From an uncultured Spirochaetota bacterium (lineage in GTDB: Bacteria; Spirochaetota; Spirochaetia; JAFGXN01): a stretch of DNA of 64,000 nucleotides. This document shows positions 5,301-64,000 of this stretch, piece after piece. The position numbers were made by a program, and so were the translations under genes. The stretch's first letter is position 1. Every line of letters starts with the position of its first letter. The notes below the pieces were generated by a model. That model did not search any database. It was not told the DNA's origin and saw only the letters and a list, made by a program, of their open reading frames with translations. The DNA is taken from the NCBI GenBank assembly GCA_944388995.1, contig CALXKN010000008.1, positions 17,160-81,159 of the forward strand, written 5' to 3'.

Positions 5301-6020
5301 ATGGGCGAATTGTACATGGTGGCCACACCGATCGGAAATCTCGGTGACATTACGCTGCGCGCGCTTGAAACGCTGAAATCGGTCGATTTGATCGCGTGCG
5401 AAGACACCCGCCGCACGCTGCAGCTTTTAAACCGTTTTTCGATTGCCAAAAAACTGATCAGCTGCCGGGCTCAGAACGAAGCGGCCGCCGCGCAAACCGT
5501 CTGCCGCGCCCTGGAAGCGGGGCAGTCGGTGGCCTACTGCAGCGATGCGGGAACTCCCGGCGTCAGCGACCCCGGAGCGCGTCTGGCGCAGACCGTCCGC
5601 CGGAACGGTTTCCGCGTCGTACCGATTCCGGGAGCGTCGGCAGTTACTGCGTTAATCAGCGTCTCTGCAACGGAAAGTAAAGGCTTTCGATTTGAAGGCT
5701 TTCTCAGTCCGAAAGAAGGCCGCCGTAAACGACGTCTCGAAGAGCTGATGAACGGCGACGTTCCGTTTATTCTGTACGAATCTCCGTTCCGCATTATTAA
5801 ACTTTTGCACAACATAGCCGATACAGACAGTGAACGGCTTATTACCGTCGGCCGCGAACTGACGAAACAGCATGAAGAAATCGCCGAAGGAACGGCCGCT
5901 TCGATTCTGAATTTATTTGAATCGAGAAATATGATCAAAGGCGAGTGGGTTTTACTGATAAACGGAAAAAAAGAGTTAAAGTCGGAAATCAAAAAAACCG
6001 ATAATAAAAAAGAGAGGTAA
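5301..6020 (+). CDS. rsmI: 16S rRNA (cytidine1402-2'-O)-methyltransferase
   Basis: Tetrapyrrole-methylase fold with RsmI-type N-terminus (LYMVATPIGNLGDITLRALETLKSVDLIACEDTRRT) and typical length. Confidence 0.9.
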   Translation: MGELYMVATPIGNLGDITLRALETLKSVDLIACEDTRRTLQLLNRFSIAKKLISCRAQNEAAAAQTVCRALEAGQSVAYCSDAGTPGVSDPGARLAQTVRRNGFRVVPIPGASAVTALISVSATESKGFRFEGFLSPKEGRRKRRLEELMNGDVPFILYESPFRIIKLLHNIADTDSERLITVGRELTKQHEEIAEGTAASILNLFESRNMIKGEWVLLINGKKELKSEIKKTDNKKER

Positions 6021-6022
6021 TC

Positions 6023-6304
6023 ATGTTGGGAAAAATCAACGGAATCAATCCAATTTCTAATACGACTCGAATCGAAGAAACGGTAAAAACGAAATCGGTT
6101 GCGGGATCCGATTCTATTTCGATTTCTTCCGATGCCGAAAAAATGAGCCGCCTTCACGCCCTGTGCGAAAAAGTAGCTCAAACTCCCGATATCCGCCAGG
6201 ACAAAATCGACGAGGTGATGAATCAAATGAAAAATCCGGACTTCATCAACGACAAGGTTTTATCCGTTGTTGCGGATAAGTTAATGGAGATTTTCAAAAT
6301 CTGA
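6023..6304 (+). CDS. flgM: Anti-sigma-28 factor FlgM-like protein
   Basis: 93 aa. The C-terminal region (IRQDKIDEVMNQMKNPDFINDKVLSVVADKLMEIF) matches the FlgM sigma-28-binding helix pattern. A rho-independent terminator follows. Confidence 0.5.
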   Translation: MLGKINGINPISNTTRIEETVKTKSVAGSDSISISSDAEKMSRLHALCEKVAQTPDIRQDKIDEVMNQMKNPDFINDKVLSVVADKLMEIFKI

Positions 6305-34793: not shown

Positions 34794-35228
34794 TCAATTT
34801 TCCGATATTATTTTTTTGATTTCTTTTATAACGGAATTTAGTTTTTTCTGTTCTTCTTTACTTTTCGGAATCAAGTCGGAGCAGTAGCGGTCTTTAAATA
34901 AATCGGGACGGGAAACATAAAAAATTTCTTTGAGATTTTCACATCCTTTGTTTTTTCTCAAACCGTCAATGATTTTTCCCTCTATGAATTTCATCGTAAT
35001 TTGGAACGATGAATGGGAAACGGCTGCAATCAGTCTGGTTCCGTTTTTATCAAAATATAAAGGATAACTGTTTTCAGCCAAACCGGCGCCAACAATTTCC
35101 TTCCAGTTATGAAAAGGCGATTTTTTTACAATTTTTGATTCTTCCAGTAAAGAAGCGAGTGAAACCGTTTTTATAACTTTTCCGTATTCTTTTAATTTCA
35201 ATTCTTCAAAAAACGGACGACCGTTCAC
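34794..35228 (-). CDS. DUF721-like protein downstream of recF
   Basis: 144 aa at the position of the conserved recF-DUF721 partner. Overlaps the recF stop. Confidence 0.5.
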   Translation of the reverse strand: MNGRPFFEELKLKEYGKVIKTVSLASLLEESKIVKKSPFHNWKEIVGAGLAENSYPLYFDKNGTRLIAAVSHSSFQITMKFIEGKIIDGLRKNKGCENLKEIFYVSRPDLFKDRYCSDLIPKSKEEQKKLNSVIKEIKKIISEN

Positions 35229-36291
35229 TGATTTCTCCTCCTTCGACGAATAAAACCGTTGTCTCTTTCTTCATATAATCGCTGTAATTTTCTTCCGGTA
35301 AAAAAGTAAAAAAAATTTGGTCGTAAAAATTCAGTCGTTTTAAAAATCTTTTTCTTTTTTCGCCGTCCACTTCGAGAATTACGTCGTCAAGAAGCAGAAT
35401 CGGTCTGATTCCGGCTTCTTTTAAAAATTCGGTCTGAATCAGCTTCAAAATAAGCGACAGAATGCGTTTTTGTCCTGTCGAAGCGGTTTTTGAAAAGTCT
35501 TTTTTTTCCGAAACAAAAACAAAGTTGTCGCGGTGAGGCCCTTTTGAAGTTGTTAAAAACCGGATATCGTCGTTTCTGGCCCCGCGGATTTCTTTCAGCT
35601 GTTCTTCTTCCGTTTTTCCTTTTAACGAAGAACGGTAAACCAGCTCAATATCTTTTCTTTGGCCTGTGATGTCTTTATAAATTTCCGAAAACATTCCGTT
35701 GATTTTTTTTACCTGTTCTTCCCTGAAACGGAAAACGGAGAATGCCGTTTGAGACAACTGACGGTCGTAAATATCAAGAAGATGGTAGTTTTTTTCTTTC
35801 AGTAAAGTATTCCTTTGGTTTAAAATCAGTTTGTATCTGCGTTTCAAATCGATATATTCGCAGTGATAAAAACAGATAATCTGATCAATGTATTTCCGTC
35901 TCAAATCCGGTTCTCCGGTAATAATGTGAAAATCCTCATGAGAAAACAAGACAACGGGATTAAGACGAATCATCTCCTTTCTGTCTTTTAAAGGATTTCC
36001 GTTCAGTAAAATCTGACGGTTTTTTTCTTCTTTGAAGCGGATTTCGTTGTCTTCGTCTTCTTCAATATTGAATTTTCCGGTTAAAGAACAGCTGTTGGTT
36101 CCGTATTTTTTGAAAATTTGTTCGCTTTTCCGTTTAAAAGAGGAACCGTAAGAGAGAATATACAATGATTCGAGAATGTTTGTTTTTCCCTGTCCGTTAT
36201 TCCCGACAAGAAAAATTTCTCTGGACGGAAAGCGGACGGTTCCGTTCCGGATGTTGCGGAAATTATAAAATGTAACCGATCGGAAACTCAT
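35206..36291 (-). CDS. recF: DNA replication and repair protein RecF
   Basis: Walker A GNNGQGKTN, signature and D-loop (LLLDDV). Confidence 0.9.
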   Translation of the reverse strand: MSFRSVTFYNFRNIRNGTVRFPSREIFLVGNNGQGKTNILESLYILSYGSSFKRKSEQIFKKYGTNSCSLTGKFNIEEDEDNEIRFKEEKNRQILLNGNPLKDRKEMIRLNPVVLFSHEDFHIITGEPDLRRKYIDQIICFYHCEYIDLKRRYKLILNQRNTLLKEKNYHLLDIYDRQLSQTAFSVFRFREEQVKKINGMFSEIYKDITGQRKDIELVYRSSLKGKTEEEQLKEIRGARNDDIRFLTTSKGPHRDNFVFVSEKKDFSKTASTGQKRILSLILKLIQTEFLKEAGIRPILLLDDVILEVDGEKRKRFLKRLNFYDQIFFTFLPEENYSDYMKKETTVLFVEGGEISERSSVF

Positions 36292-37400
36292 TGAGATGCT
36301 GTCATCGGCATAACGATGTGCAGAAATTTCTCCTGAGGCACGCTGTAAACCGTCACGGCTTTTTCCGGATGAGAAAAACGGATTTCGATGTTTTCGGAAT
36401 CAATGATTTTTAAAGGATCAAGAAGAAACATATAATTCAGTGAAATCGTAACGTTACCGCCGCCGGTATAAACGCACGGAATTTTTCCGAACGCCTTTCC
36501 GAACGTGTTTTCTTTATCGGTTTCGACCGACATTTCATTGTCCGTAATCCGCAAGTTGATTCTGTTGGTCTTATTCTCAATCATAACGGAAATTCTGTTG
36601 ATAACGCTGATCAGCTCGTTTTTATTCACAACGATTGATTTGTCGTCGTCTTTGGGAATGATTCTTTCGTAGTCGGGATAGGAATTATTGATGATAAACG
36701 AATACAGATAAGTGCTGCCGAATTTAAAGACGATTTTTTTATCGCCGATCATAATTTCAAAATCACCATCGTTGCCGGTCAGTCTTTTGAAAAGGGTCAG
36801 CGCTTTTTTCGGAATGATGATGTCTTTAAAGTCGGGAACTTCCGTTTCGGAAGAATCAATAATCGACATCTGTTTCATATCGGTGGAAACCATTCTCAGC
36901 GAAGAGTTTTTTTTGCAGAAGAGAACGCCGGTCAGATAAATTCTGTTTTCGTCGTTGGAAACGGAAAACAGAGTGTGATTAATCATTTTCAGAAATTCTT
37001 TTTGTGAAAATGAAAAAGAAACGACATTCTCATCCATACCGATTTCGGGAAAGGTATCGGAAACAGTCATTTTCAGAGTATAAAAAAGACTGTCGTTGTT
37101 TTTTAAAGATACATTGAAATCCGTATGAACCGATTCAAAAAGAAGTTCTTCATCGGGACAGCTTCTCAGCACTGTTAAAAACTTATCGCAGTAAACGACG
37201 GCCGATCCTTCTTCCAGAACATCGACCTTCAGCGAAGTTTCATAACTGAAATTGGAGTCGGTTGCTTTGATAATCAGTATATTGTCGGCAGCCTGAAGAT
37301 AAACGCTCGACATGAAAGAGGCAAAATTCCTCGAAGAAGCAATTTCGTAAGCGATACCGATTTCTTTTAAAAGAGCTTCTTTTTGACAGGTGAATTTCAT
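36288..37400 (-). CDS. dnaN: DNA polymerase III beta sliding clamp
   Basis: 370 aa with three-domain clamp architecture, in a dnaA-dnaN-recF operon. Confidence 0.9.
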   Translation of the reverse strand: MKFTCQKEALLKEIGIAYEIASSRNFASFMSSVYLQAADNILIIKATDSNFSYETSLKVDVLEEGSAVVYCDKFLTVLRSCPDEELLFESVHTDFNVSLKNNDSLFYTLKMTVSDTFPEIGMDENVVSFSFSQKEFLKMINHTLFSVSNDENRIYLTGVLFCKKNSSLRMVSTDMKQMSIIDSSETEVPDFKDIIIPKKALTLFKRLTGNDGDFEIMIGDKKIVFKFGSTYLYSFIINNSYPDYERIIPKDDDKSIVVNKNELISVINRISVMIENKTNRINLRITDNEMSVETDKENTFGKAFGKIPCVYTGGGNVTISLNYMFLLDPLKIIDSENIEIRFSHPEKAVTVYSVPQEKFLHIVMPMTASQ

Positions 37401-45257: not shown

Positions 45258-45369
45258 AAAAATCTCCTTATTTGCAGTTTAACACTTTTTTTGTGCGGAG
45301 ACAAGAAATTTCGATTTTTTTTTGTTTTTATTGAAGAAAAAATCCTTTTTGACTATTATTATTTATAGT

Positions 45370-46131
45370 ATGAAAACAAAAATTACGGCATTTGTCAATC
45401 AAAAGGGCGGCGTCGGAAAAACGACGACAACAGTAAATCTCGGTGCGTATTTAGCCGACGCGGGGAAAAAAGTTCTTTTAATCGATTTTGATCCACAAGG
45501 AAATCTTTCTTCAAATGTCGGTATTGCCGACGTTGAGAAGGGTATTTACGAATTGCTGGCAGGGCAGGCCGATGCAAATGAATGTGTTTATGAAACGCCT
45601 GTTGACAATCTTTTTGTTTGTCCGACCGATATCAATTTGGCGGGAGGAGCTGTCGAATTGATTTCGGTTGATGATCGGGAATTTGTTTTAAAAGAAGCGA
45701 TGGATGAATGGCGCGGCGTTTACGATTATATTTTTATTGACTGTCCGCCCGCATTGGGAGTACTGACTATTAACGCGTTGACGGCAGCCGATGAGGTGAT
45801 TGTTCCGCTTCAATGTGAATATTTTGCGTTGGAAGGTTTGTCACAGTTATTGGATACGATTGAAATGGTGCGGAATACCACTAACCCGAAATTAACATTT
45901 CCTCGTATACTGTTTACAATGTACGATTCAAGAACCCTTCTTTCCCGCGACGTTGTGGATAATTTGAATCAAAACTATCCGGATCGGCTTTTTAAAACCA
46001 TCATTCCTCGGAATGTCAAGTTGGCAGAAGCGCCGTCTCATGGCGTTCCGATTAATTTATACGACAGTTTATGTCTTGGAGCAAAGAGTTACGAAAATTT
46101 GGCAAAGGAGTATATGAACGATGGCAAATGA
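45370..46131 (+). CDS. parA: Chromosome partitioning ATPase ParA/Soj
   Basis: Deviant Walker A KGGVGKTTT. The start was chosen at MKTKI. Confidence 0.9.
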   Translation: MKTKITAFVNQKGGVGKTTTTVNLGAYLADAGKKVLLIDFDPQGNLSSNVGIADVEKGIYELLAGQADANECVYETPVDNLFVCPTDINLAGGAVELISVDDREFVLKEAMDEWRGVYDYIFIDCPPALGVLTINALTAADEVIVPLQCEYFALEGLSQLLDTIEMVRNTTNPKLTFPRILFTMYDSRTLLSRDVVDNLNQNYPDRLFKTIIPRNVKLAEAPSHGVPINLYDSLCLGAKSYENLAKEYMNDGK

Positions 46132-47029
46132 AAATCGTCCTGCAAGAATGAAACGATCGGGATTAGGAAAAGGGATCGAAAATCTGAAACCGAAGGCAGC
46201 GGCTCCTTCCGTAAAAAAGTGGGAAGAAGAGGCGGCCCAAAACGGCGGTATTCGCGAAATTGCGCTCGATGATATTTTTGCCTATACCGATCAGCCGAGA
46301 AAATATTTTGATGAAGAGTCTTTAAACGAACTGGCCGATTCGATTCGGCAAGTCGGCGTTCTGCAGCCGATTTTGGTTATCAGTCGCGAGTCGCGGTATA
46401 TGATTGTTTCCGGAGAACGGCGTTACCGCGCCGCGGTCAAAGCCGGCTTGAAAACCATTCCGGCAGTGGAAATGTCGTTGACTGACGAAAAAGCGGATGA
46501 AATTGCGGTTATTGAAAATATTCAGCGTGAAGATTTAACTCCACTGGAAGAAGCGCGCGCTTATCAGGCGTTAATGCGCCGTTACGGTTATACGCAGGAG
46601 CAGGTTGCCGAAAAAGTCGGAAAAAAGCGTTCGACAATCACCAATGCCGTCCGTTTACTGAAATTACCTGAAGACATTTTAACCGGATTGGAAGAAAATA
46701 AAATTACAGCGGGACATGCACGGAGTTTGGCCGGGTTAAAAAAAGAATCGGAAATGCGGAAGTTTTATCAGATGATTATCTCAAAAGGTTTAAGCGTCCG
46801 CGATATTGAAAAACTTCTGGCAAAAGACGAAAAAAAGGCGGAACCGACAGCGGCCGCCGGAAAACCGTCCAAATCGGAGGATATTCTCGCCGTTGAATCG
46901 CAGTTGATGGAACGGCTGGGAACTCACGTTCTTATCAACGGAACGGAAAAACGGGGAAAAATTGTCATTGATTATTATTCGCTCGATGATTTAAATCGAT
47001 TGATCGAACTGTTGGGAGGCGGTTTTTAA
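46121..47029 (+). CDS. parB: Chromosome partitioning protein ParB/Spo0J
   Basis: ParB box GERRYRAA plus an HTH. Confidence 0.9.
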   Translation: MANENRPARMKRSGLGKGIENLKPKAAAPSVKKWEEEAAQNGGIREIALDDIFAYTDQPRKYFDEESLNELADSIRQVGVLQPILVISRESRYMIVSGERRYRAAVKAGLKTIPAVEMSLTDEKADEIAVIENIQREDLTPLEEARAYQALMRRYGYTQEQVAEKVGKKRSTITNAVRLLKLPEDILTGLEENKITAGHARSLAGLKKESEMRKFYQMIISKGLSVRDIEKLLAKDEKKAEPTAAAGKPSKSEDILAVESQLMERLGTHVLINGTEKRGKIVIDYYSLDDLNRLIELLGGGF

Positions 47030-55224: not shown

Positions 55225-55253
55225 ATAGTAAAAGAAAGCCGCCGTCCTGTCAA
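55225..55253 (-). promoter_or_regulatory. Promoter for the oppA-like gene (TTGACA-17nt-TACTAT), with the -10 box 6 nt from the ATG (leaderless candidate)
   Basis: Minus-strand sequence reads ttgacaggacggcggctttcttttactatggcggcATG, immediately abutting repeat copy A. Confidence 0.45.
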
Positions 55254-55254
55254 C

Positions 55255-55421
55255 CTTTTCGTTTTTTGGGCGCGCGCCCCTGCGGGGCGCCGGGCTTTCC
55301 GCTGCAATTCGCAGCCTCCCTGCGCCTTCACCGCGGCAAAGCTGCCGCTTTGCCCTGCGCCTTCTCTCCGTCGGCAGCTCATTTCCGCTTCAATCCCTCG
55401 CGCCTTCGGCAAGGTGCTGCG
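55255..55421. repeat. GC-rich 166/167-bp structured repeat, copy A
   Basis: About 99% identical to 56426..56591 (a single 2-bp indel). Contains a GGGCGCGCGCCC palindrome and hairpins gctgc-aattc-gcagc and ggcaaagc-tgcc-gctttgcc. About 68% GC in a genome of about 50% GC. Confidence 0.9.
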
Positions 55422-55616
55422 GAAATCGGCATTTTATTGTTTTAGTGTAAAAATGGGAACTTCCGAAAACAGTCAACCGTTTTTCGGAAAAATAACTGCC
55501 CTAAACGTATTTTTGTGTTATAATAACTCCAATAAAAATTTCGTATGGCAAACACAGCAAAAGCAAAACCCGAAAAAAACGCCGATTAAAACCGGAGCGG
55601 AAGATTCGGGAGAAAC

Positions 55617-55922
55617 TTGGAGCGATCGGGTATGAGCTGTAATCTTCCTGAAAGCGTGGTTTTCGATATTGAACGATTCGCAAAGAAAAACAAGATTAAA
55701 AAGGTCGTTCTGTTTGGCTCCCGCGCGAGGGGCAATCATTCGGAACGAAGCGACATTGATTTGGCGGTCAGCGGTGGAAACGCGGCGGATTTTTATTACG
55801 ACGTCAATGAAGAAGCGCGGACTCTTTTAATTTTTGATGTGGTCAATCTGGACGGACCGGTCAGCGGCGAACTGCGCGCCGAAATAGAAAAGGACGGAGT
55901 TTTACTCTATGAAGAAATTTGA
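55617..55922 (+). CDS. Minimal nucleotidyltransferase (MNT), MntA-like antitoxin of a type VII TA pair
   Basis: GS-x9-DxD nucleotidyltransferase motif (LFGSRARGNHSERSDIDLAV). Overlaps the downstream HEPN gene by 14 nt. Confidence 0.8.
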   Translation: MERSGMSCNLPESVVFDIERFAKKNKIKKVVLFGSRARGNHSERSDIDLAVSGGNAADFYYDVNEEARTLLIFDVVNLDGPVSGELRAEIEKDGVLLYEEI

Positions 55923-56304
55923 CAATTTTTGCAAAGCGCTTTCGAATTTGCGGGAAGGATTGCAGCTTGAAGAACCGTATTCTGTCGTCGAACGGACGGG
56001 CATCATCGGGCTGTTTGAAATTTGCTTTGAGCAGGCATGGAAGCTGATGAAAGCGGTTTTGGAAGAGCACGGCAGGACAATCGACCGCGTCGGTTCCCCG
56101 AAAGTTGTCATTCAGCTTGCATATCAGAGCGGGATGATTGACGACAGCGAAAAATGGCTTTCCCTGCTCAGAGATCGAAATATCCTTGCTCACACCTACA
56201 GCGACGAAGATTCGCTTGCCGTGATTCGAACGTTAAAGACGGACTACGAGCCCTTGTTCGCCACCCTCAAAGAAGAGATTGAAACGCGCCGGCTTTCGGC
56301 GTAA
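55909..56304 (+). CDS. HEPN-domain protein, HepT-like toxin
   Basis: HEPN Rx4-6H motif RNILAH in the C-terminal helix. Size and pairing are typical of HepT/MntA pairs. Confidence 0.75.
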   Translation: MKKFDNFCKALSNLREGLQLEEPYSVVERTGIIGLFEICFEQAWKLMKAVLEEHGRTIDRVGSPKVVIQLAYQSGMIDDSEKWLSLLRDRNILAHTYSDEDSLAVIRTLKTDYEPLFATLKEEIETRRLSA

Positions 56305-56425
56305 AGCGGAGGCGCGAAACAACTGAGTCCGGTATGAAAGTAGAAGAAATGGGAGCGAAAACTCTTTCAATCGCCACTGATTCTGCCAGCATCTTTACAT
56401 TTGGCTCCGCCCCCCCTCGCTGAAT

Positions 56426-56591
56426 CTTTTCGTTTTTTGGGCGCGCGCCCCTGCGGGGCGCCGGGCTTTCCGCTGCAATTCGCAGCCTCCCGCGCCTTCA
56501 CCGCGGCAAAGCTGCCGCTTTGCCCTGCGCCTTCTCTCCGTCGGCAGCTCATTTCCGCTTCAATCCCTCGCGCCTTCGGCAAGGTGCTGCG
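56426..56591. repeat. GC-rich 166-bp structured repeat, copy B
   Basis: Direct repeat of 55255..55421, located between the convergent HEPN gene and the 961-aa gene. Confidence 0.9.
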
Positions 56592-56655
56592 AAAGAGGCG
56601 TCTGAAAACTATAAATATGAGAACAATCTCATTTAAACCTCATCCATTTTTATCT

Positions 56656-59541
56656 TCAGCAGAAATGCGCCATATCGCGCGGATAATACTTGCAGTCGTG
56701 CAGTTCCGTGTCGTCAAGCCCCAGCGCCTTTACCAGGGCAGCAGACGCTATGCACCAGTACCCGCGGTACTGGTTCTTTTTCAAGTCAAATTTTGTTATA
56801 AGCCCATCAGTCTTCGTGTGAATCCACTGTCTTTTAAGATACCGTTTTAACCGCTCAACAGCCGCCGCTTTATTCTCTTTTGAAAGCAGTACCACCTCAT
56901 ATACCGCATTGGAATATTTCGGACAGCAGAGCTTTTCCGTGCGTATCTGCCAGGATGAGTCCAGCGTCTGCATAAGGAAATCCAGATAAAAATCCCGCTG
57001 TTCCGATTTTTGTAACAATTTTCGATAGTCATCCAGAAATTCAGTCCTGTTAAAAAGCATAATCAAGTACAGAACAGTTTCCATATCTTCATAATTATCA
57101 TTGCCGTCCTGTGCGTCTATCAAATGACGCAAAATCAGGTCTACTTCGGGAAGCAGCTCATGCATATCTAGCCCTAAGGAATATCCTGTATAAAATTTGT
57201 AAAATGCATAAGTATATATTTGATATTTAAACGCTCTTATGTCCGATTCTGCCTGATGTTCATCAGTCTCAATATTATGATGATGATACGTTTGCAGTAT
57301 TTCTTTCAGCTTTTGGGAATCTTTCTTGAATCTTTCGTCAAAATATTCCTGGGGTTTGACTTTATCCCTCATCATTCTTACCCGGGGCGGAAGTTTTTCC
57401 CGCTCCTCCTCCGTAAGAAATTGCGACAGTTCAACTAAAAAGGGCTCTATAAACTCCGACATGAGTTTCGCTTTATTCCCGGCTGAGTGATCATAAGGTA
57501 TTTCAATTGCCGATGTCCGCCGTTTCTCATCCTTCCACAAGCGTCCTATTTTAATAAATGAACCGCCTTTCTCAAATATGTACAACGATATAATCAGTGT
57601 GCAGTCTTCATACTCACATTCTATATAATCTTGCTCCCCCAAGCAGTAATCTCTGTAGGTAAGATTCCTCAAAGTGGTTATTATCCAGGGTATCCACTCT
57701 TTTTTGATGACAACACTATCCCATGACTGCCATGACCCGGTACCGAAACGGCTGCCGGTTCTGGTGTTGATTCGTAGTTCGCCTTTGGGACTCCAGGGCG
57801 TGGGAAGTTTTTTCCGTTCTTCTTCAGGAAGAAATTGTGACAAGGCCACTAAGAAGGGTTCTATAAATTCCGACATGATTTTCAAGTCGTTGTCCGATTC
57901 TTCAAAATTAAATTCGAAACGGGTATAACGCCACTTTGATGTCAGGGTATAACTCTGCTCATTTTTTGCATGCCAAGGAAAATAAGGTATTTCAAGTGCC
58001 GGCGATATCTTCTTTTCATCCTTCCACATGGGAAATATTTTTATATAGGAATACCCATCCCCTATAGGACAGATACTTAATGTTAATTGGCACGTTCCCC
58101 ATTTATTTATGATGCTTTCAACTCCTGTTTGATAATTATCAACACTAAGATTTCTCAATGTGCTTATTATCCAGGGTATCCGGTTTTTTTGTATAACAAT
58201 ACTTTTCTGCTGCCCGCCGCCGAATGTACCGGTTCTTTTTCCGTTAATCCGTAATTCATCGTTATCTAATTCCTCGAAGCTGTATTCAAAATCGGCATTC
58301 AGAGTTTTTTTGCTTTGATATTTTGTTATCTTCTCTATTTTGGCTACTATCGATTCGTCGTCCGACTTATCGGTTTCGCCTGCATACCAATCTTTGCCTT
58401 CGAGCCATACCCCGAACCAGAAAGGAAGATCCCCCCAAGGTCTTTGACAGAGTTCTTTCTTTTCGTTGACACTCCAGGGGGGCGACAGTTTACCCCTTTC
58501 TTCTTCCGTGAGAAACTGCGACAATGCAACCAGAAACGGCTCTATAAATTCCGACATTAATTTTGTTTCTTTCCGGGATACATAGGGTATTTCAATATTC
58601 CATGAACTCTTATTTTCATTTTTCCAGACAGGATAAATTTTGATATAGGAATAATCAAAGGGTACTACATTTATAATAAAACTTAAATTACAGTAACCGT
58701 ATTCATATACGAGAGTTTGCGGGGTGTTATAATCGTCGATAGTGGCATTTCTTAGTGTGGTAATGATCAAAGGTATCCACGCTTTTTTTATGATAATACT
58801 TTCCCATTGTCCCCTGCCGAATGAATCTGTTCGCTTTGCATTGATTTCCAACTCGTCATCATTTAATTCTTCATTGTCAGCTTTTTCCTCAAAATAAAAT
58901 TCGAAATGAACATTCCCGCCCTTACTGATCAGGTATTCTTTTTCTGCCAGTCCGTATTGTGTTATACCGGTCATTGCTTTGAAAAAATTGAGGGAACCGC
59001 TTTCCTTATCGGCAAAAATGATGTTCTGTTTTTTGTTTTCCCTCCAGGGAGGCGGAAGTTGTGTTCTTTCTTCTTCGGTAAGGAATTGTGCCAATTCAAC
59101 CAAAACAGGTTCGATAAATTCCGCCATTAACCTGCTTTTATCCCAGGGTAGATATGGTATTTCAATAAACGGTGTCGTTTTTTCCTTCGGTTCCTTCCAT
59201 ATGGGCATTATTTGAAGGGTCGCATAATCTTTGGCAGATGGTAAAAACTCCAGATTGACTTGACATTCTTCATATTCGTGAACGATATGTCTGTTCCAAA
59301 TCCCTTCCGGAAAGTTGATGTCGTAATCCTCAAAAGGAAGGGTTCTCAGTGTGGTGATAATCCGGGAAATCCACGCTTTTTTTATGACGATACAGTAATA
59401 CAAAGGCATACGTTCCGCTTCATCCAACAATGGAAAGGTTATTTTTTCGAAAATCCGTATTTCGTCGTTGTCCGATTCCTCAAAATGAAATTCAAAGGTA
59501 TCGGATATTTCGGCATCTCCCCTTCTGCCTGTAATGAACAT
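56656..59541 (-). CDS. Large modular protein with four rearranged ~170-200-aa tandem repeats plus a C-terminal domain paralogous to ORF 59781..60401
   Basis: Repeats fall at roughly aa 16-212, 213-417, 418-541 and 542-~740, with shared motifs FEFxFEESDNDELRI..KRTxxFGxGQWxSIxIKKxWIPxIITTLRN..DY, ..YIKIxPxWKxExK..EIPY.. and KLMSEFIEPFLVxLSQFLTEEERxKLPPPW. The C-terminal ~200 aa is about 70% identical to the stand-alone ORF upstream. Confidence 0.7.
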   Translation of the reverse strand: MFITGRRGDAEISDTFEFHFEESDNDEIRIFEKITFPLLDEAERMPLYYCIVIKKAWISRIITTLRTLPFEDYDINFPEGIWNRHIVHEYEECQVNLEFLPSAKDYATLQIMPIWKEPKEKTTPFIEIPYLPWDKSRLMAEFIEPVLVELAQFLTEEERTQLPPPWRENKKQNIIFADKESGSLNFFKAMTGITQYGLAEKEYLISKGGNVHFEFYFEEKADNEELNDDELEINAKRTDSFGRGQWESIIIKKAWIPLIITTLRNATIDDYNTPQTLVYEYGYCNLSFIINVVPFDYSYIKIYPVWKNENKSSWNIEIPYVSRKETKLMSEFIEPFLVALSQFLTEEERGKLSPPWSVNEKKELCQRPWGDLPFWFGVWLEGKDWYAGETDKSDDESIVAKIEKITKYQSKKTLNADFEYSFEELDNDELRINGKRTGTFGGGQQKSIVIQKNRIPWIISTLRNLSVDNYQTGVESIINKWGTCQLTLSICPIGDGYSYIKIFPMWKDEKKISPALEIPYFPWHAKNEQSYTLTSKWRYTRFEFNFEESDNDLKIMSEFIEPFLVALSQFLPEEERKKLPTPWSPKGELRINTRTGSRFGTGSWQSWDSVVIKKEWIPWIITTLRNLTYRDYCLGEQDYIECEYEDCTLIISLYIFEKGGSFIKIGRLWKDEKRRTSAIEIPYDHSAGNKAKLMSEFIEPFLVELSQFLTEEEREKLPPRVRMMRDKVKPQEYFDERFKKDSQKLKEILQTYHHHNIETDEHQAESDIRAFKYQIYTYAFYKFYTGYSLGLDMHELLPEVDLILRHLIDAQDGNDNYEDMETVLYLIMLFNRTEFLDDYRKLLQKSEQRDFYLDFLMQTLDSSWQIRTEKLCCPKYSNAVYEVVLLSKENKAAAVERLKRYLKRQWIHTKTDGLITKFDLKKNQYRGYWCIASAALVKALGLDDTELHDCKYYPRDMAHFC

Positions 59542-59780: not shown

Positions 59781-60401
59781 CTAACAGAAATGGGTCATAT
59801 CGTAGGGATAGTATTTACAGTCTTTCAGTTCCGTATCGTCAAGTTTGAGGGCTTTTACCAAAGCGGCGGCGGCGATGCACCAATACCCCCGGTACCACCC
59901 TATTTTCAGATCCCGGTTGGTTATAACACCTTCGGTTAATGACATAAACCACTGCCTTTTAAGATACCTCTTTAACCGCTGGACGGCTTCCGCCTTGTTT
60001 TCTTTTGACAGCATTACCACCTCGTATACCGAATTGGTCTCTTTGGGGCAACGAAGTTTTTCCGTACTTATCTGCCATGTGGAGTCTACTATCTGTACAA
60101 GATAATCCAGGTAAAAATCCCGCATTTTCGATTTTTGTAATAACTCCTTATATTCATCCAGAAATTCTGTCCGGTTAAAAAGAATGATTAAGTATATAAT
60201 CATTTCCATATCATCATAACCTCTGTCCCTTTCTCTCGTTGTATCAATCAAATTTCTTATGATAAGGTCTACTTCGGGAAGCAGCTCATTCATACCAAGC
60301 CCCAGGGAATAGCCTGCATAAAATTTACAAGCTGCTTCCATATATATGTGATATTTAAACGACCATACATTATATTTTTCCGGATGGCTTATTCTCTTCA
60401 T
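59781..60401 (-). CDS. Stand-alone paralogue of the C-terminal domain of the 961-aa protein (unknown function)
   Basis: FKYHIYMEAACKFYAGYSLGLGMNELLPEVDLIIRNLID...YRGYWCIAAAALVKALKLDDTELKDCKYYPYDMTHFC aligns with FKYQIYTYAFYKFYTGYSLGLDMHELLPEVDLILRHLID...CKYYPRDMAHFC. Confidence 0.65.
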   Translation of the reverse strand: MKRISHPEKYNVWSFKYHIYMEAACKFYAGYSLGLGMNELLPEVDLIIRNLIDTTRERDRGYDDMEMIIYLIILFNRTEFLDEYKELLQKSKMRDFYLDYLVQIVDSTWQISTEKLRCPKETNSVYEVVMLSKENKAEAVQRLKRYLKRQWFMSLTEGVITNRDLKIGWYRGYWCIAAAALVKALKLDDTELKDCKYYPYDMTHFC

Positions 60402-60642
60402 ATTTACTCATCCGTTCAGCAAGATCAGACGCATCCTTATTATATCTTTCCCTAAAATATTCTTCTGTTTTTATGGTGTCTCTCATCTGTTATTCCTTGT
60501 GTATTTTGTAAATTTTTGGTTTATTCTCGTTATACATAACATTGCCATTTTCATCAAGTTGGTAATATGTTACTTTTCCTCCCTTCGGAACGCCTGCGGC
60601 GTGGCTACAATCCTTTGTGCGAGAAGATTTTTATCAATGGTG

Positions 60643-60700
60643 TCCGTACACACCCATTGATGTTGTCAAAGAACTCCTTCTGTACGGAGATAGGGGGAGG
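60643..60700. repeat. 58-bp perfect direct repeat, copy 1 (copy 2 at 63943..64000)
   Basis: tccgtacacacccattgatgttgtcaaagaactccttctgtacggagatagggggagg is identical at both sites. Contains an internal 8-bp inverted repeat (tccgtaca/tgtacgga). Confidence 0.9.
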
Positions 60701-60701
60701 G

Positions 60702-60929
60702 TTATTCAAAAGTTATTACCATATGCGAACCTGCCGTTTTTTCGGTTACTTTCTGTATAATCTCTTTTTTGTCATCTTCAGTTAATGGCTCGTTTTCTGG
60801 AACAAGCCAATTTTTCATTGAACTTTTATAACAGACAAAACCGCCTACTATCATTTCGCCTGCGATTCTCGCAGTTCTGCCATCGAGTTCTACATCTATG
60901 TATGTGTTTGTTCCGGTTATTTTTGTCAT
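60702..60929 (-). CDS. Small hypothetical protein, possibly an immunity protein; a truncated copy of its 5' end lies at 62318..62350
   Basis: 75-aa ORF 8 nt downstream of a DUF600-like gene. Its first ~10 codons recur after the second DUF600-like gene. Confidence 0.45.
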   Translation of the reverse strand: MTKITGTNTYIDVELDGRTARIAGEMIVGGFVCYKSSMKNWLVPENEPLTEDDKKEIIQKVTEKTAGSHMVITFE

Positions 60930-60938
60930 ATATTAATC

Positions 60939-61271
60939 CTATGCATTATCCCATTCGTCTTGAAGAGCCTGATCCCATTCAAAGGTCATATCAAAGTGAC
61001 CGTTCTTTTCAAGGGTGTAAATAGCTTTGTTCCATTGTGCAAAATGTAACTCTTTTGCACTATTATGAAATTTTATTAAATCAATTTTTGTTTCTCGATT
61101 AAGTGCTAAGTTTAAAGCATTTTTCCATTCTCCATTAATCTGATATTTTGCATTCGTACCAATATATTTATCACTACATTCAATATTCAGTTCAATTTTA
61201 TCCCAAGAGGAATCAATACTATCATTCAATTGCGAACCAATATTTTTATATATATCTTCAATATTTTTCAT
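60939..61271 (-). CDS. DUF600/EsaG(YezG)-like immunity protein, paralogue 1
   Basis: N-terminus IYKNIGSQLNDSIDSSWDKIEL resembles EsaG IYNEIANEISSMIPVEWEKVY. Its C-terminal block NGHFDMTFEWDQ is shared with paralogue 2. Sits immediately downstream of the nuclease toxin fragment. Confidence 0.55.
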   Translation of the reverse strand: MKNIEDIYKNIGSQLNDSIDSSWDKIELNIECSDKYIGTNAKYQINGEWKNALNLALNRETKIDLIKFHNSAKELHFAQWNKAIYTLEKNGHFDMTFEWDQALQDEWDNA

Positions 61272-61283
61272 AAATACTCCTAT

Positions 61284-61648
61284 TAATTTAAGAAGAACAA
61301 ATTTTCTGTTTTTTCTATTTTTCCATCCGATGTTTTTATAATGTATGTTACATCAAAATCTGTCGGTCTTAGATTATCAGCATAGTTTATTTTTATATCA
61401 ACTTCAACCTTTTTTCCCTCTGAAAGTGCATCGTTCCATTTTTTTTCCATGGTTTTCCATTCACCATTATTTAGTGTGGCGGTTTGTGGAACATAATTTA
61501 TTTGTTCTCCAGGACCATTGAAAATTCTTGCAATAATATGTCCGCCCTGGTCATCACCTTTAATACCATCTTTTATATCAACTGATTTTCCTTGTTGATA
61601 AACATTTCTGTCTTTTGTTTCAAGTTTTAATTCTCCGCTTACTTTGTT
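61284..61648 (-). pseudogene. Orphan C-terminal fragment of a His-Me-finger (Serratia-type / Endonuclease_NS) non-specific nuclease toxin domain; no start codon
   Basis: A stop-to-stop frame translates to ..KDGIKGDDQGGHIIARIFNGPGEQINYVPQTATLNNGEWKTMEKKWNDALSEGKKVEVDIKINY.., with the His-Me-finger catalytic His in GGH (canonical DRGH) and the metal-ligating Asn in N-Y-VPQ (Serratia nuclease N-I-TPQ..LNQGAW). In-frame tag and taa stops lie upstream and there is no ATG before the motif. Confidence 0.55.
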
Positions 61649-61731
61649 TTACAACTATTTTCTTTTACTTGCAATTGTTCCAAAACGATTAAGTGCAGCA
61701 ACAATATCTTCATAATCAGCATCTATTTCAT

Positions 61732-62262
61732 CTAACTGTCCCAGATTTCCTTAAATTTTAAACCTTTGATACTGTTTTTCTTAACAATATCTATAAACTC
61801 ATCTGTTACAAAATAATCTCGAATAATTAATTGATTTTGTAGTTTAACTTGAAAAAGAGGTGGATAATTGTTTTCCTTAAAATAATATTGCTCAACACCT
61901 AAAATATCATTCTCAAAATACTTATATTTAGTTTTTTTTCGATCTAAGCAGTCCAAAACAGTTAAATTATTTAATAGTACAAAATCGTCATTAAGCGGAA
62001 CAAATCTTATATTTATTTGAGAAATGTCAGAAAGTACTGCCATAAATTTTTTATTTATGAAGAATCCTCTACAATCATAACATTCACAAATATCCCCTGC
62101 AGGATTATTAGAATCTCTATCGTATTCTAATTGAAAATCAGAAGGAATGCTTATTTCTATACCTTTATTAAACTGACGTAAAATTTTTCTATCAGTTTCT
62201 TCGTTTTTTATATAGCATCCTTTGTAATTATCAATATCTGTTTCTAAAATGTATATTTTCAT
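61732..62262 (-). CDS. Hypothetical protein (putative immunity protein) with a G8 tract in its RBS
   Basis: 176-aa ORF in the immunity-gene array. The run ggggggggatatATG sits immediately upstream of its start. Confidence 0.5.
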   Translation of the reverse strand: MKIYILETDIDNYKGCYIKNEETDRKILRQFNKGIEISIPSDFQLEYDRDSNNPAGDICECYDCRGFFINKKFMAVLSDISQINIRFVPLNDDFVLLNNLTVLDCLDRKKTKYKYFENDILGVEQYYFKENNYPPLFQVKLQNQLIIRDYFVTDEFIDIVKKNSIKGLKFKEIWDS

Positions 62263-62266
62263 ATAT

Positions 62267-62274
62267 CCCCCCCC
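62267..62274 (-). repeat. Homopolymeric G8 tract (C8 on the plus strand) 4 nt upstream of the start codon of ORF 61732..62262
   Basis: Plus strand reads atatatccccccccTAATTG; the ATG of the minus-strand gene is at 62260-62262. Confidence 0.9.
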
Positions 62275-62362
62275 TAATTGTGAATTTTTAAGAAACCACT
62301 CAATAATTCCTTTCGGATTGTTTGTATGTGTTTGTTCCGGTTATTTTTGTCATATATTAATC

Positions 62363-62686
62363 CTATGCATTATCCCATTCGTCTTGGAGAGTTTGATCCC
62401 ATTCAAATGTCATATCAAAATGACCATTCCTTTCAAGAGAGTAAACAGCTTTGTTCCATTTATGCTCAGGCGACATAGATTCTTGAAGTTCAAAAACGCT
62501 ATCCATTAAAGTATTTACAGTTAATAAAGGAAACTTTAATTCTTTTTTTTCAAACGATGATAAAGTATATTCTGCCTGAAATGAACACATTTTATTTAGA
62601 CTTGATTCTATTTTTACAGTCACTTTTTCCCATTTACCGGAAATATTATCTTGAACCGCCTTGCCTAATTCTTTATATAAATCCAT
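62363..62686 (-). CDS. DUF600/EsaG(YezG)-like immunity protein, paralogue 2
   Basis: GKWEKVTVKIE ... WNKAVYSLERNGHFDMTFEWDQTLQDEWDNA. Its C-terminal 40 aa is nearly identical to 60939..61271. Confidence 0.55.
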   Translation of the reverse strand: MDLYKELGKAVQDNISGKWEKVTVKIESSLNKMCSFQAEYTLSSFEKKELKFPLLTVNTLMDSVFELQESMSPEHKWNKAVYSLERNGHFDMTFEWDQTLQDEWDNA

Positions 62687-62732
62687 AGCATCTCCATTAA
62701 TTGTTGAATATTTTTTTGAATAGTTGGCTCAT

Positions 62733-63842
62733 TTATTTCTCTTTATTTAAAATAAACAGATACTCAGAGACGTGTATATTACGGTTATTCAAATTTCTGC
62801 TTCCCCGGAATGTATTATAAGTCATTTCAACGGTTTTCAGTTTTCCGTAGTGTTCCAGCATTGTTTTCATTTGCTCAAAAGTAATAAATCCTTCAGAATT
62901 ATAAGAGATAATGACAAACTTTGAATCAATTTTATCTATGATTTTTTCCATGGATTTTAAGGCTGAATAAGGTTTGTTGAATTCCGAGCGGTTCCAATCC
63001 TGAGTTATCCCTGAAACTTTACTGATTTCAGCATCCAGCCTGTTCTTTATGATAAGATTCAGCATAAAATAATTTGAACCATAGGGATGCTGGTTATACG
63101 GGGGATCCAGATAAGTAATATCTATTTTTTTTAATTCCCCGGCAAGTTCCACAGCATCTTTTTTATAGATTTTAACCTTTGAATTGAAATTGCTTAAAAC
63201 CGGCTCTTTCAGTTCTATTTTTCCAAAAATGCGGGTTAAAGCGTTTTTCCCGGCAGCGCCGAAACATCCGATTCCGGTATTTTTGTCCTTGTAAAACCCT
63301 TTGAAAACCCCGCTTGTATTGACATGAACCGAAGCCTCCGTTACGAGCGGCGCTAAAAAAAATTTTTTCATGTCTTCTTCCTGCACCACTTTATCAATCA
63401 GACTGCGGTAAGTGTCGATTAACAGAGCGTTCTCATGGGTATAAAAAACCCTTTCTCCTCTTTGAATATTTCCGTCATCCTGAGGGGCATAATTTTTTGT
63501 GATAATTCTCGGTTCTTTTTTGCTGCGGCACATTTCTTCTATTATTGATTTATATTCCCGCCATTTTTCATGCGGAAAATCTTTTTTGTCAGTCAGATAG
63601 CATTCATTGATGAGGCGGGAATATTCTTCCAGATCATTGGCAATTAAAACACTGCTGTATTTTTTCAGCATCCGGGCAACAATTCCCGAACCGGAGAAAA
63701 TATCCGCACAAACAAGTTTTTCTTTTCCCAATAAACCGGCAATTTTTTTGACTTCTTCTTCTATATTCCTGATAAGCTGCCGTTTGTTCCTGATATAAGT
63801 AATGATCTGTGCAGTAAGATATTCTTTATTTTCTTCTTTCAT
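62733..63842 (-). CDS. DNA N6-adenine methyltransferase (DPPY motif), either orphan or part of an R-M system beyond the window
   Basis: Motif I DIFSGSG and motif IV TYLDPPYNQHPYGSNYF. No restriction endonuclease gene is visible within the window. Confidence 0.7.
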   Translation of the reverse strand: MKEENKEYLTAQIITYIRNKRQLIRNIEEEVKKIAGLLGKEKLVCADIFSGSGIVARMLKKYSSVLIANDLEEYSRLINECYLTDKKDFPHEKWREYKSIIEEMCRSKKEPRIITKNYAPQDDGNIQRGERVFYTHENALLIDTYRSLIDKVVQEEDMKKFFLAPLVTEASVHVNTSGVFKGFYKDKNTGIGCFGAAGKNALTRIFGKIELKEPVLSNFNSKVKIYKKDAVELAGELKKIDITYLDPPYNQHPYGSNYFMLNLIIKNRLDAEISKVSGITQDWNRSEFNKPYSALKSMEKIIDKIDSKFVIISYNSEGFITFEQMKTMLEHYGKLKTVEMTYNTFRGSRNLNNRNIHVSEYLFILNKEK

Positions 63843-63942
63843 GGCTGTAAAGATTTATATTGTTCCAAATTTCCGGTTTATTCTATGCTTTTTGACAGAC
63901 CTTTATACTCAGTATCCCTCTCCGCAAAAATCAACCCGGATT

Positions 63943-64000
63943 TCCGTACACACCCATTGATGTTGTCAAAGAACTCCTTCTGTACGGAGATAGGGGGAGG
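63943..64000. repeat. 58-bp perfect direct repeat, copy 2 (cut by the window end)
   Basis: Identical to 60643..60700, about 100 bp upstream of the methyltransferase start. Confidence 0.9.

Follow-up and report, generated by a model that had tools for sequence, protein, structure and literature searches.

A duplicated Imm74 immunity gene at the 58-bp direct repeats of a mosaic toxin-immunity array in an uncultured spirochaete

At the end of the 64-kb stretch of gut spirochaete chromosome analysed here (the window), which also has dnaN, recF and parAB, two copies of a 58-mer bracket an AT-rich block of 3.3 kb, raising the question of whether they are the ends of an integrated element, a repeated regulatory site or a duplication. 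The observations from which an earlier note on this DNA started are sound. The 58-mer is identical at 60643-60700 and 63943-64000 and has no further copy in the window, an exact recurrence with an estimated chance probability in 64 kb of ~1e-26. Copy 1 indeed lies between a 75-aa ORF and a 206-aa gene, starting 1 nt past the stop of the former, and copy 2 lies 101 nt from the start of a DNA methyltransferase gene at 63842, while the intervening DNA has a GC content of 0.28-0.30 at 61-63 kb compared with ~0.45 for the whole window. The internal 8-bp inverted repeat (TCCGTACA...TGTACGGA) is perfect, but only mildly unusual, as inverted repeats of at least 8 bp arise in 94 of 5000 dinucleotide shuffles (p about 0.02).

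The length of 58 bp, however, proved to be an artefact of the window end. Sequence past 64000 was read from near-identical (99.9%) metagenome contigs rather than from the window's own genome, and contigs 99.9% identical to the window tail run into a 75-aa Imm74 gene (L001 7300-7527, L002 1980-2207). The full direct repeat is 288 nt, with 99% identity between 1979-2266 and 5279-5566 of L002, and both of its copies are spanned by four independent metagenome assemblies (L002, L003, L004 and L007). It extends from the ATG of Imm74 to the final base of the 58-mer (the whole ORF, one base and the 58-mer) and is therefore mostly coding, a duplicated gene rather than a short non-coding site. A repeat that touches a window edge should not be taken for a short site. 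The features between the two copies and next to them are as follows.

59781..60487, minus strand: PoNi-type predicted immunity gene, ORF of 206 aa (PF08929, E = 6e-20)
60490..60577, minus strand: short C-terminal toxin remnant, a 38-aa ORF whose product ends in ...KIYKIHKE before the stop, just upstream of the PoNi gene (translation)
60582..60620, minus strand: relic (first 39 nt) of a structured repeat, SE, with the same sequence as the 5' portion of the complete SE in L038
60643..60700, minus strand: copy 1 of the 58-mer, non-coding, directly 3' of Imm74 (exact repeat)
60702..60929, minus strand: Imm74, predicted orphan immunity gene of 75 aa, the body of copy 1 of the 288-nt repeat (PF15603, E = 1.3e-15)
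60939..61271, minus strand: YezG-like predicted immunity gene, 110 aa (PF04634, sub-threshold)
61283..61649, minus strand: frameshifted remnant of an Endonuclea_NS_2 toxin cassette (PF13930 on a 55-aa ORF)
61732..62262, minus strand: Imm11-like predicted immunity gene, 176 aa (PF07791, sub-threshold)
62323..62362, minus strand: truncated third Imm74, of which roughly 31 nt from the 5' end of the ORF are left, after the 107-aa YezG-like gene (repeat D4)
62363..62686, minus strand: YezG-like predicted immunity gene, 107 aa (PF04634, E = 7.5e-5)
62733..63842, minus strand: solitary D12-class N6-adenine DNA methyltransferase, 369 aa (PF02086, E = 9e-18)
63943..64000, minus strand: copy 2 of the 58-mer, the 3' flank of the second Imm74 just past the window end (exact repeat)

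All genes of the array lie on the minus strand, and the locus is a mosaic of toxin fragments, orphan immunity genes and the solitary D12 methyltransferase, in which the toxin-domain cassettes lack N-terminal trafficking regions and adjoin immunity genes. A homologue of the methyltransferase in L016 (86% identical) is followed by an EcoRI-family endonuclease gene, where the window has an immunity gene instead. In L011 and L012 an AHH toxin is followed by a gene whose DNA is 99.5% identical by BLAST to that of the Imm11-like gene; Imm11 is reported to pair with Tox-AHH (PMC3482391). The 38-aa toxin remnant is called as a gene in L003 and L021. The PoNi gene, one of two PoNi_C domain matches in the array (E = 6e-20 and 1.4e-17), probably has its true start at 60487 together with a frameshift, its N-terminal peptide MRDTIKTEEYF matching MMRDKVKPQEYF of a 961-aa paralogue but in another frame. 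The 7.5 kb past the window end, as represented by L001, hold toxin fragments, an immunity gene, transporters and a 157-aa gene without a Pfam match, and include an intact 212-aa Endonuclea_NS_2 gene (5659-6297), to which the remnant in the window is 93% identical, and a 142-aa AHH gene. Repeat D4 (138 nt, 60899-61036 against 62323-62460, 93% identity) carries the third Imm74 remnant, in place of which L015 has an intact 71-aa Imm74; D4, this stub and the endonuclease remnant are internal repeats that bear the signs of repeated shuffling.

We consider that the 58-mers are the visible ends of a direct 288-nt duplication generated by homologous recombination within a toxin-immunity array, a reading to which we assign a probability of about 0.8. 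Imm74 with its flank would act as portable homology because this organism and its relatives carry multiple copies of the module, the exact Imm74 protein alone being indexed in 236 collection blocks. RecA-type recombination between copies could then lead to unequal crossing-over, or to the gain or loss of the looped-out segment, while occasional illegitimate joins would also shuffle the adjacent toxin and immunity modules. The 3.3-kb block, which contains the methyltransferase, a YezG-like gene, the Imm74 stub, the Imm11-like gene, the endonuclease remnant, a second YezG-like gene and Imm74, may be one product of such shuffling. Where the repeat ends on its right, with the final base of the 58-mer, a methyltransferase-bearing piece of an EcoRI-type restriction-modification unit may have been joined in a one-off illegitimate event, and this edge would not be the target of a recombinase. 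What is observed is how far the repeat extends and what it contains, its multicopy mosaic contexts, the conversion patches, a relative without the segment and a lack of recombinases in the regions covered; the pathway and the order of its events are our inference.

The 58-mer does recur elsewhere, the Imm74 and 58-mer module being present in at least six other contexts, among them an eCIS_core/AHH array and the vicinity of a transposase, of MmeI and of an MFS gene with restriction-modification and IS3 genes, and its neighbours differ among L011, L012, L015, L016, L024 and L025. Downstream homology ends at +0, +3, +26, +47, +67, about +110 and about +270 nt past the 58-mer, and an inverted partial copy of the module is cut within the 58-mer at base 41. 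The related MAG L025 has a single Imm74 with its 58-mer and lacks the 3.3-kb segment with the methyltransferase. Its identity to L001 6467-7586 is 99.9%, in the left flank of copy 2 and on to where the 58-mer ends. Beyond this point come CAC (the three bases that also begin the sequence after copy 1), DNA of no relation and then a PoNi gene (91%). Thus the suggestion in the earlier note of a duplicated cassette holds, in the sense that Imm74 with 59 nt of its 3' flank occurs twice and that a relative lacks the block between. L025 provides an empty-site-like allele, but no deletion or excision allele was found within the same strain population, in which all contigs that reach the region keep the arrangement or break inside the repeats. 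The breakpoints of L025 (+3) and copy 2 (+0) nearly coincide, and the end of the 58-mer could therefore be fragile or targeted, but the breakpoint of L025 can be accounted for by microhomology-mediated deletion (GGTGTGTACGG / GGGTGTACCGG).

Most differences between the Imm74 copies themselves affect the third base of a codon and are grouped in conversion-like patches. About 12 linked changes, for the most part at third positions, form a block that lies in copy 2 in L001, L008 and L010 and in copy 1 in L003, L004, L007 and L022, with a shorter tract in L027 and L028, although these strains are otherwise 99.5-99.9% identical. The two copies therefore exchange gene-conversion patches between near-identical strains.

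These substitution patterns also bear on the possibility that the 58-mer is a functional cis element, such as a promoter or operator, a hairpin that stabilises or processes mRNA or a protein-binding site, which travels with Imm74 and is kept by selection. All full-length 58-mers show 0-1 substitutions among contigs fetched by exact-protein or exact-pattern look-up, and conservation is 100% in four species-level MAGs in a search that required an exact match. Differences in the Imm74 coding sequence, by contrast, reach ~8% overall (17-18/232 nt) and 11% (18/161 nt) over the available stretch of one copy. They are, however, concentrated in one conversion-like patch, and the rest of the coding sequence varies no more than the flank does, which makes an extra constraint on the 58-mer unnecessary. 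The inverted repeat and the position of copy 2 upstream of the methyltransferase start are in keeping with a regulatory role, but neither a sigma-70-like promoter nor a terminator consensus was found in the 58-mer on the gene (minus) strand, and its RNA fold is no more stable than chance (z = 0.0); the repeated promoter or operator module proposed earlier thus draws no support from consensus scans or folding. Moreover, Imm74 homologues of 89-97% amino-acid identity occur without the 58-mer (L039-L041), and the one divergent copy, in L038, has uncompensated changes in each arm of the second hairpin. We regard selection on the 58-mer as an improbable explanation of the repeat.

Still less likely is that the 58-mers are att-like cores of an integrated 3.3-kb cassette or island, or sites of the attC type, served by a recombinase encoded elsewhere. 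A low-GC block bracketed by direct repeats would be expected of such an element, and in L025, which lacks the block, the end of the only copy is no more than 3 nt away from the corresponding point; chromosomal integrons are known in Treponema, some of their arrays lacking intI (PMC3607928). Against this, the repeat is 288 nt and comprises an entire gene with its flank, and the breakpoints vary among contexts with no single precise boundary. That no recombinase is visible, as had been remarked, remains the case on extending past 64000: no recombinase domain was detected in the 3.3-kb block, in the 7.5 kb past the window end (L001), in 14 kb of the opposite flank (L027) or in the ten recombinase-sized ORFs of the window. 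An attC site is recognized by R'' (RYYYAAC) and R' (GTTRRRY) boxes that are mutually complementary and 45-140 nt apart (PMC3607928), and a scan of both strands over 54-64 kb gave one chance palindrome in the 176-aa ORF and no RYYYAAC...GTTRRRY pair at the 58-mer or SE. The predicted hairpin of the 58-mer (-12.9 kcal/mol) equals the mean of its shuffles (z = 0.0). The att-like boundary put forward in the earlier note is accordingly not supported. A mis-join of the multicopy Imm74 module during metagenome assembly is just as improbable, for although many contigs of the locus end in or beside Imm74 or the 58-mer (L009, L021/L029, L030, L031), the same order runs through both copies in the four separate samples, each copy has distinct flanks and its own SNP pattern, and the window itself contains copy 1 complete and the unique junction of copy 2.

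The arrangement is best described as a duplication made by recombination in an array of a familiar type. It resembles polymorphic toxin loci that have orphan toxin/immunity modules, and polyimmunity loci or proteins (Zhang et al. 2012, PMC3482391; Jamet & Nassif 2015, PMC4436062), in that co-oriented toxin C-terminal fragments are followed by immunity genes. The resemblance extends to the families (Imm74, Imm11, YezG and PoNi) and the 961-aa multi-domain immunity protein found here, to a content that varies between strains and species, and to recombination via shared homology. Toxin remnants are interleaved with the immunity genes, however, and it is therefore not a 'pure' polyimmunity locus; furthermore, the recombining homology is an immunity gene with its 3' flank and not the conserved pre-toxin part of a full-length toxin gene, and the array includes a gene for a DNA methyltransferase. 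In the rearrangement, duplication and deletion of modules by recombining repeats it is akin to the process by which orphan Rhs/CdiA-CT modules recombine and are amplified (Koskiniemi et al. 2014, as cited in PMC4436062), but differs from that process in that no full-length toxin gene is involved at the locus and that immunity genes and a methyltransferase are gained or lost with no silent toxin being activated.

Low GC and short, co-oriented orphan immunity genes are also features of the rAID-1 arrays of Bacteroidales (2019, bioRxiv 10.1101/471110), for which the GC criterion is at least two co-oriented downstream genes at GC <=41%; the array agrees with this at 0.28-0.43 over 57-64 kb. The host here is, however, a spirochaete, and a XerD-like recombinase of the rAID-1 type was found neither at the array head, which in L001 adjoins a Na/Ala symporter gene, nor in the flanks. 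With the integron arrays of Treponema (Wu et al. 2013, PMC3607928) the locus shares cassettes bracketed by repeats, such as an MNT-HEPN pair between 173-nt repeats, but the AAC/GTT R''/R' boxes, with T. denticola attC sequences as the comparison, are absent from both the 58-mer and SE, no intI was seen and most of the 58-mer repeat is duplicated coding sequence. The locus is an ordinary example of toxin-immunity array diversification: with a multicopy immunity gene as portable homology, blocks of defence genes may come and go, or undergo conversion, among strains and also among species-level genomes.

The structured repeat SE was found in passing. It is a covarying element that marks module boundaries in related arrays, 98-142 nt in full, with the conserved parts GCRCAAAGGAUUGUAGC, a variable arm, GCGGAAAGCCUGG, a hairpin and UGCGCCC, and in the eCIS_core(DUF4157)-type arrays of gut spirochaetes it separates one toxin-immunity module from the next, in every case on the strand of the genes. 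Full copies occur in the related arrays; the window has the relic and two short forms of 60 nt. Homology between arrays repeatedly begins or ends at the ends of SE. The relic, separated from copy 1 of the 58-mer by a 22-nt spacer, matches L015 over about its first 24 nt, and most downstream homology breakpoints fall at its start, within it or just past it. The MNT-HEPN toxin-antitoxin pair is flanked by two SE-containing repeats of 173 nt (55252-55424 and 56423-56594).

Tentatively, SE may bound the cassettes of a new, integron-like shuffling system that lacks canonical attC or IntI features, or it may be a new cis-acting RNA that insulates or regulates each of the toxin modules. Its marking of cassette boundaries in related loci and its variable-length arm within a conserved structure recall integron sites, but SE has a branched fold with a side hairpin rather than the single R/L-box hairpin of attC. 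If SE is a boundary, Imm74 with the 58-mer, spacer and SE relic would constitute a decayed 3' cassette end and the MNT-HEPN pair a recent cassette insertion. If functional, SE would offer a way to test what bounds, moves or regulates the toxin-immunity modules of spirochaetes, a question that also concerns polyimmunity and rAID-like arrays generally. The rAID-1 arrays are characterised by a conserved repetitive intergenic motif, to which SE in the related arrays may be a counterpart. SE has no Rfam family match at threshold; the tandem short form in the window scores 21.6 bits against Flavo-1 (RF01705), for which the gathering threshold is 42, and none of the full-length copies matches Flavo-1 at E <= 1. 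Flavo-1 (Weinberg et al. 2010, PMC2864571), matches to which occur in either orientation relative to transcripts (PMC9723704), nevertheless has the signatures GAUUG(A/U)AGC and GCGGAAAGC in common with SE, which differs from it by the additional variable arm and 3' hairpin.

The window contains two exact copies of the 58-mer (TCCGTACACACCCATTGATGTTGTCAAAGAACTCCTTCTGTACGGAGATAGGGGGAGG) and no others, at 60643-60700 and 63943-64000, and the block between the copies is AT-rich as the earlier note had reported, with a GC content of 0.28-0.30 at 61-63 kb against approximately 0.45 for the whole window. The 8-bp inverted repeat within the 58-mer is likewise real but only mildly unusual, since one of at least 8 bp arose in 94 of 5000 dinucleotide shuffles. 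A look-up of the exact methyltransferase protein returned ten metagenome contigs 99.5-100% identical to the tail of the window, all ten of which carry a second gene for Imm74, the 75-aa orphan immunity protein, upstream of copy 2; both copies are spanned by four independent assemblies (L002, L003, L004 and L007). The repeat in L002 is 288 nt long at 99% identity, and base-by-base comparison places its start at the Imm74 ATG and its end at the last base of the 58-mer, while the genes upstream of the two Imm74 copies differ (a 180-aa gene versus a 110-aa gene). It follows that a gene has been duplicated and that the 58-mer is its 3' flank. The repeats described in the earlier note are thus real but were truncated by the window edge, and its interpretation is half right, in that they represent a duplicated cassette rather than an att site.

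The best-supported reading, to which we assign a probability of about 0.8, is a recombination-generated duplication in a polymorphic-toxin/orphan-immunity array. The locus belongs to a kind already described (Zhang et al., 2012, PMC3482391; Jamet and Nassif, 2015, PMC4436062); what is unusual, on the best-supported reading, is that the portable homology consists of the Imm74 gene and its flank. All real genes in the 56.6-64 kb region lie on the minus strand and are given here in transcription order.

63842-62733, minus strand: D12 methyltransferase
minus strand: YezG-like gene, 107 aa
minus strand: stub of the Imm74 start, 31 nt
minus strand: Imm11-like gene, 176 aa
minus strand: Endonuclea_NS_2 remnant, frameshifted
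minus strand: YezG-like gene, 110 aa
60929-60702, minus strand: Imm74, 75 aa, with copy 1 of the 58-mer next
minus strand: toxin-tail remnant, 38 aa, after copy 1
minus strand: PoNi, 206 aa, 5' end apparently frameshifted
56656-59541, minus strand: 961-aa protein, four tandem repeats fused to PoNi_N and PoNi_C

The PoNi gene seems to be frameshifted near its 5' end (60402-60487, minus strand). In the 961-aa paralogue the N-terminus of the PoNi part is matched by MRDTIKTEEYFRERY..., which in the window starts at 60487 and is in a different frame from the 206-aa ORF. The 961-aa protein itself appears to be a polyimmunity protein; its repeat domain has no Pfam match, and the repeats, of approximately 190 aa each, correspond at the DNA level to the window repeat families D2, D3 and D7 with a period of approximately 570-600 nt.

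The distribution of variants between the two Imm74 copies is the pattern that gene conversion between paralogues would leave. About 12 linked substitutions are carried by copy 2 in L001, L008 and L010 and by copy 1 in L003, L004, L007 and L022, in strains that are otherwise 99.5-99.9% identical. This patch covers coding positions about 120-200, and third codon positions take 11-13 of its changes; a 3-change tract is present in the Imm74 gene of L027 and L028. Outside the patch the Imm74 gene is no more variable than the 58-mer flank. The proposal that the 58-mer is under selection, being better conserved than the Imm74 coding sequence, was dropped, the coding differences amounting to one or two conversion-like patches.

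The DNA that separates the two repeats is itself mosaic. Between the 176-aa gene and the gene following AHH in L011 identity is 99.5%, the endonuclease remnant shares 93% identity with the intact upstream copy, and D4, a 138-nt repeat, preserves the YezG-3'/Imm74-5' junction. The window methyltransferase has 86% protein identity to a homologue in L016 that is paired with an EcoRI-family endonuclease; the solitary D12 methyltransferase (62733-63842, minus strand) therefore resembles the surviving half of a restriction-modification unit, and looks like such a leftover among immunity genes. At 8074-9909 of L016 the methyltransferase homologue is followed directly by genes for the EcoRI-family endonuclease and an IS3 transposase.

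The module, comprising Imm74, one base and the 58-mer, is multicopy. The exact Imm74 protein is indexed in 236 collection blocks, and the 58-mer (with at most one substitution) follows Imm74 in every fetched contig encoding the exact protein. The module lies within an eCIS_core/AHH toxin array where Imm74 is present twice, 6 kb apart (L011 and L013), beside a Mutator-type transposase (L012), in a YezG-Imm74-Imm11-Imm74 array adjoining MmeI (L015), and next to an MFS transporter, methyltransferase, EcoRI-family endonuclease and IS3 (L016). Nearly everywhere in this set the 58-mer leads into the copy-1 continuation (CACCATTGATAAAAATC...), copy 2 being the odd one. Homology past the 58-mer ends at +0 in copy 2, +3 in L025, +26 in L024, +47 in L015, +67 between the window and L011, about +110 in L016 and about +270 in L012. 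At 11544-11639 of L016 there is also an inverted partial copy that keeps 55 nt from the end of Imm74 and runs 41 nt into the 58-mer, where it is cut at base 41. It sits past the MFS, methyltransferase, EcoRI-family endonuclease and IS3 genes, and inverted Imm74 fragments therefore bracket the restriction-modification/IS block there.

Bearing on the att-like reading of the earlier note is an empty-site-like allele. L025, a contig of the Spirochaetia MAG SUG3664, matches L001 6467-7586 at 99.9% identity, across AHH, the 180-aa gene and Imm74 through to the last base of the 58-mer, after which it continues with CAC, identical to the first three bases after copy 1, a fragment of an SH3-like gene, and a PoNi gene 91% identical to that of the window. 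L025 is therefore a related genome with a single Imm74 and 58-mer, the left flank of copy 2 and PoNi at the right, without the 3.3-kb block. The undeleted version of its right side is found in L024, and the L025 junction presents microhomology (GGTGTGTACGG against GGGTGTACCGG). Look-ups with the methyltransferase, Imm74, PoNi and HEPN proteins found no allele of this kind in the strain population of the window; the contigs recovered there either show the window's arrangement or are broken at the repeats. The spread of homology ends does not fit a site-specific crossover. A canonical attC search of the 58-mer, using the criterion and the Treponema denticola attC sequences of PMC3607928, was negative, with no R''/R' boxes; for T. 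succinifaciens and T. brennaborense the same paper reports 'long attC' sites of 115-132 bp. When the stretch was extended past base 64000 with L001 as proxy for the window's genome, no recombinase domain was called: upstream of copy 2 lie in turn the 180-aa Imm11-like gene, a 142-aa AHH toxin cassette and an intact 212-aa Endonuclea_NS_2 toxin, followed by a Na/Ala symporter gene transcribed divergently, then genes for an ABC transporter and LysE and a 157-aa gene lacking a Pfam hit.

As to the other proposal of the earlier note, a repeated promoter/operator, neither copy holds a sigma-70-like promoter or an intrinsic terminator on the gene strand, and overall counts are at shuffle level. Nor was there a signal of RNA structure relative to shuffles in the 58-mer (z = 0.0) or in the whole spacer from Imm74 to the next gene (z = -0.2), and the 58-mer has no Rfam match. 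In other metagenomes, homologues of Imm74 with 89-97% amino-acid identity lack the 58-mer. A candidate hairpin across the 58-mer end (ATCAATGG/CCATTGAT) was rejected, the sole variant copy, in L038, altering both arms without compensation.

To return to a duplication by recombination, its steps are inferred, while the structures, the patches and the presence/absence allele are observed. The right edge of copy 2 would be one illegitimate junction to a methyltransferase-bearing fragment, and the two 288-nt repeats would now be able to mediate deletion, further duplication and conversion.

On the other side of the array are the MNT-HEPN pair and genes for a peptide-binding protein, a BIG2/LRR protein, a HAD hydrolase, CorA and ParB/ParA. 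Ten further ORFs of recombinase size in the window proved to be housekeeping genes, among them dnaN, recF, mnmA, dapA and thyX, and Rfam at the gathering threshold identified only tRNA-Ser and SRP RNA in the window. The window is chromosomal, and dnaN, recF and parAB suggest that it lies near the replication origin. At 35206-37400 and 45322-47029, Pfam confirms recF and dnaN, and the annotation carried by identical contigs identifies parA and parB; the large ORFs between recF/dnaN and parA/parB are probably dnaA, gyrB and gyrA. If these identities are true, the toxin-immunity array would be approximately 20 kb from the likely replication origin.

Among GTDB species representatives the 58-mer (one Y in the pattern) occurs once per MAG in four MAGs, three labelled as spirochaetes and one as Mucispirillum. 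Module DNA is essentially identical across the four species-level MAGs (L023-L026), which implies either recent horizontal spread of the module or a mis-binned Mucispirillum contig. Contigs of the locus (L009, L021/L029, L027, L028, L030 and L031) end at differing repeats, namely the 58-mer, Imm74, the relic of the structured repeat SE, and D4, which leaves the region systematically fragmented in public assemblies.

SE, an intergenic structured repeat without a Rfam match at threshold, is the lead worth following at a locus of otherwise modest interest. Its relic near copy 1 is 39 nt long (60620-60582, minus strand), starts 22 nt past copy 1, and agrees at every base with the 5' part of the L038 full copy, with a match in L015 over about the first 24 nt. 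The conserved parts of SE are GCRCAAAGGATTGTAGC, a variable arm, GCGGAAAGCCTGG, a hairpin and TGCGCCC. RNAalifold on five full copies gave a structure with compensatory changes, and a covariance model built from these five recovered 16 copies in 10 sources. In the alignment of the 16 copies 95.6% of cells are paired, against 32-46% with slid partners, although this alignment was fitted to the model and so favours structure; covariation is strong in the same model-fitted alignment, where 14 of 31 pairs show double changes, one pair being seen as C-G, A-U and U-A. The conserved G.U pairs are on the gene strand. Full copies are as follows.

L015: 6310-6429
L038: 613-712
L042: 821-962
L054: 9711-9826 and 10435-10550
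L055: 158-273 and 882-996
L056: 3856-3970
L058: 1566-1701, 4702-4826 and 9087-9184
L059: 5108-5243 and 7807-7923
L060: 3049-3173

Full copies gave no Rfam hit at E <= 1 (including a scan of L038 and L022). Viral contigs scanned with the SE 5' core gave two matches, the first within a phage ORF and the second where a contig ends, which we estimate to be about chance. We rejected the idea that the 58-mer, together with what follows it, is the decayed 'pre-toxin' coding region of a toxin (..TDTIDKNLLAQRIVATP.., open in L015): SE copies range from 98-142 nt with length differences that are not multiples of 3, their reading frame varies by locus and the paired positions covary.

SE always has the orientation of the array genes and is located past immunity genes, ahead of the next eCIS_core/toxin module, and homology between arrays repeatedly starts or stops at it. 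The L054/L055 break is the exact SE 3' end, those of L058/L059, L058/L060 and L059/L060 lie at most 3 nt from it, and L054 and L056 differ by the presence or absence of a cassette of 104-aa and 55-aa genes just after SE (at most 8 nt from its 3' end). Some junctions are less exact: an orphan 107-aa gene retains 106 nt of the 3' end of its toxin, with the junction 68 nt from SE. Homologous recombination within SE therefore accounts for the data at least as well as a dedicated recombinase would.

Short forms of SE are present in the window within direct repeats of approximately 173 nt that flank the MNT-HEPN toxin-antitoxin pair.

55252-55424 and 56423-56594: direct repeats
55265-55325, minus strand: SE short form, 27-30 bits
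56436-56495, minus strand: SE short form, 27-30 bits
55617-55922, opposite to the array: Polbeta nucleotidyltransferase gene of the pair
55909-56304, opposite to the array: NTase_sub_bind/HepT gene of the pair

The pair looks like a cassette inserted between the 961-aa gene and the peptide-binding protein gene. The flanking repeats are 98-99% identical at a spacing of 1171 nt and hold two tandem SE-like units each; this unit gave the sole Rfam match for SE, to Flavo-1, at 21.6 bits and so below the threshold of 42.
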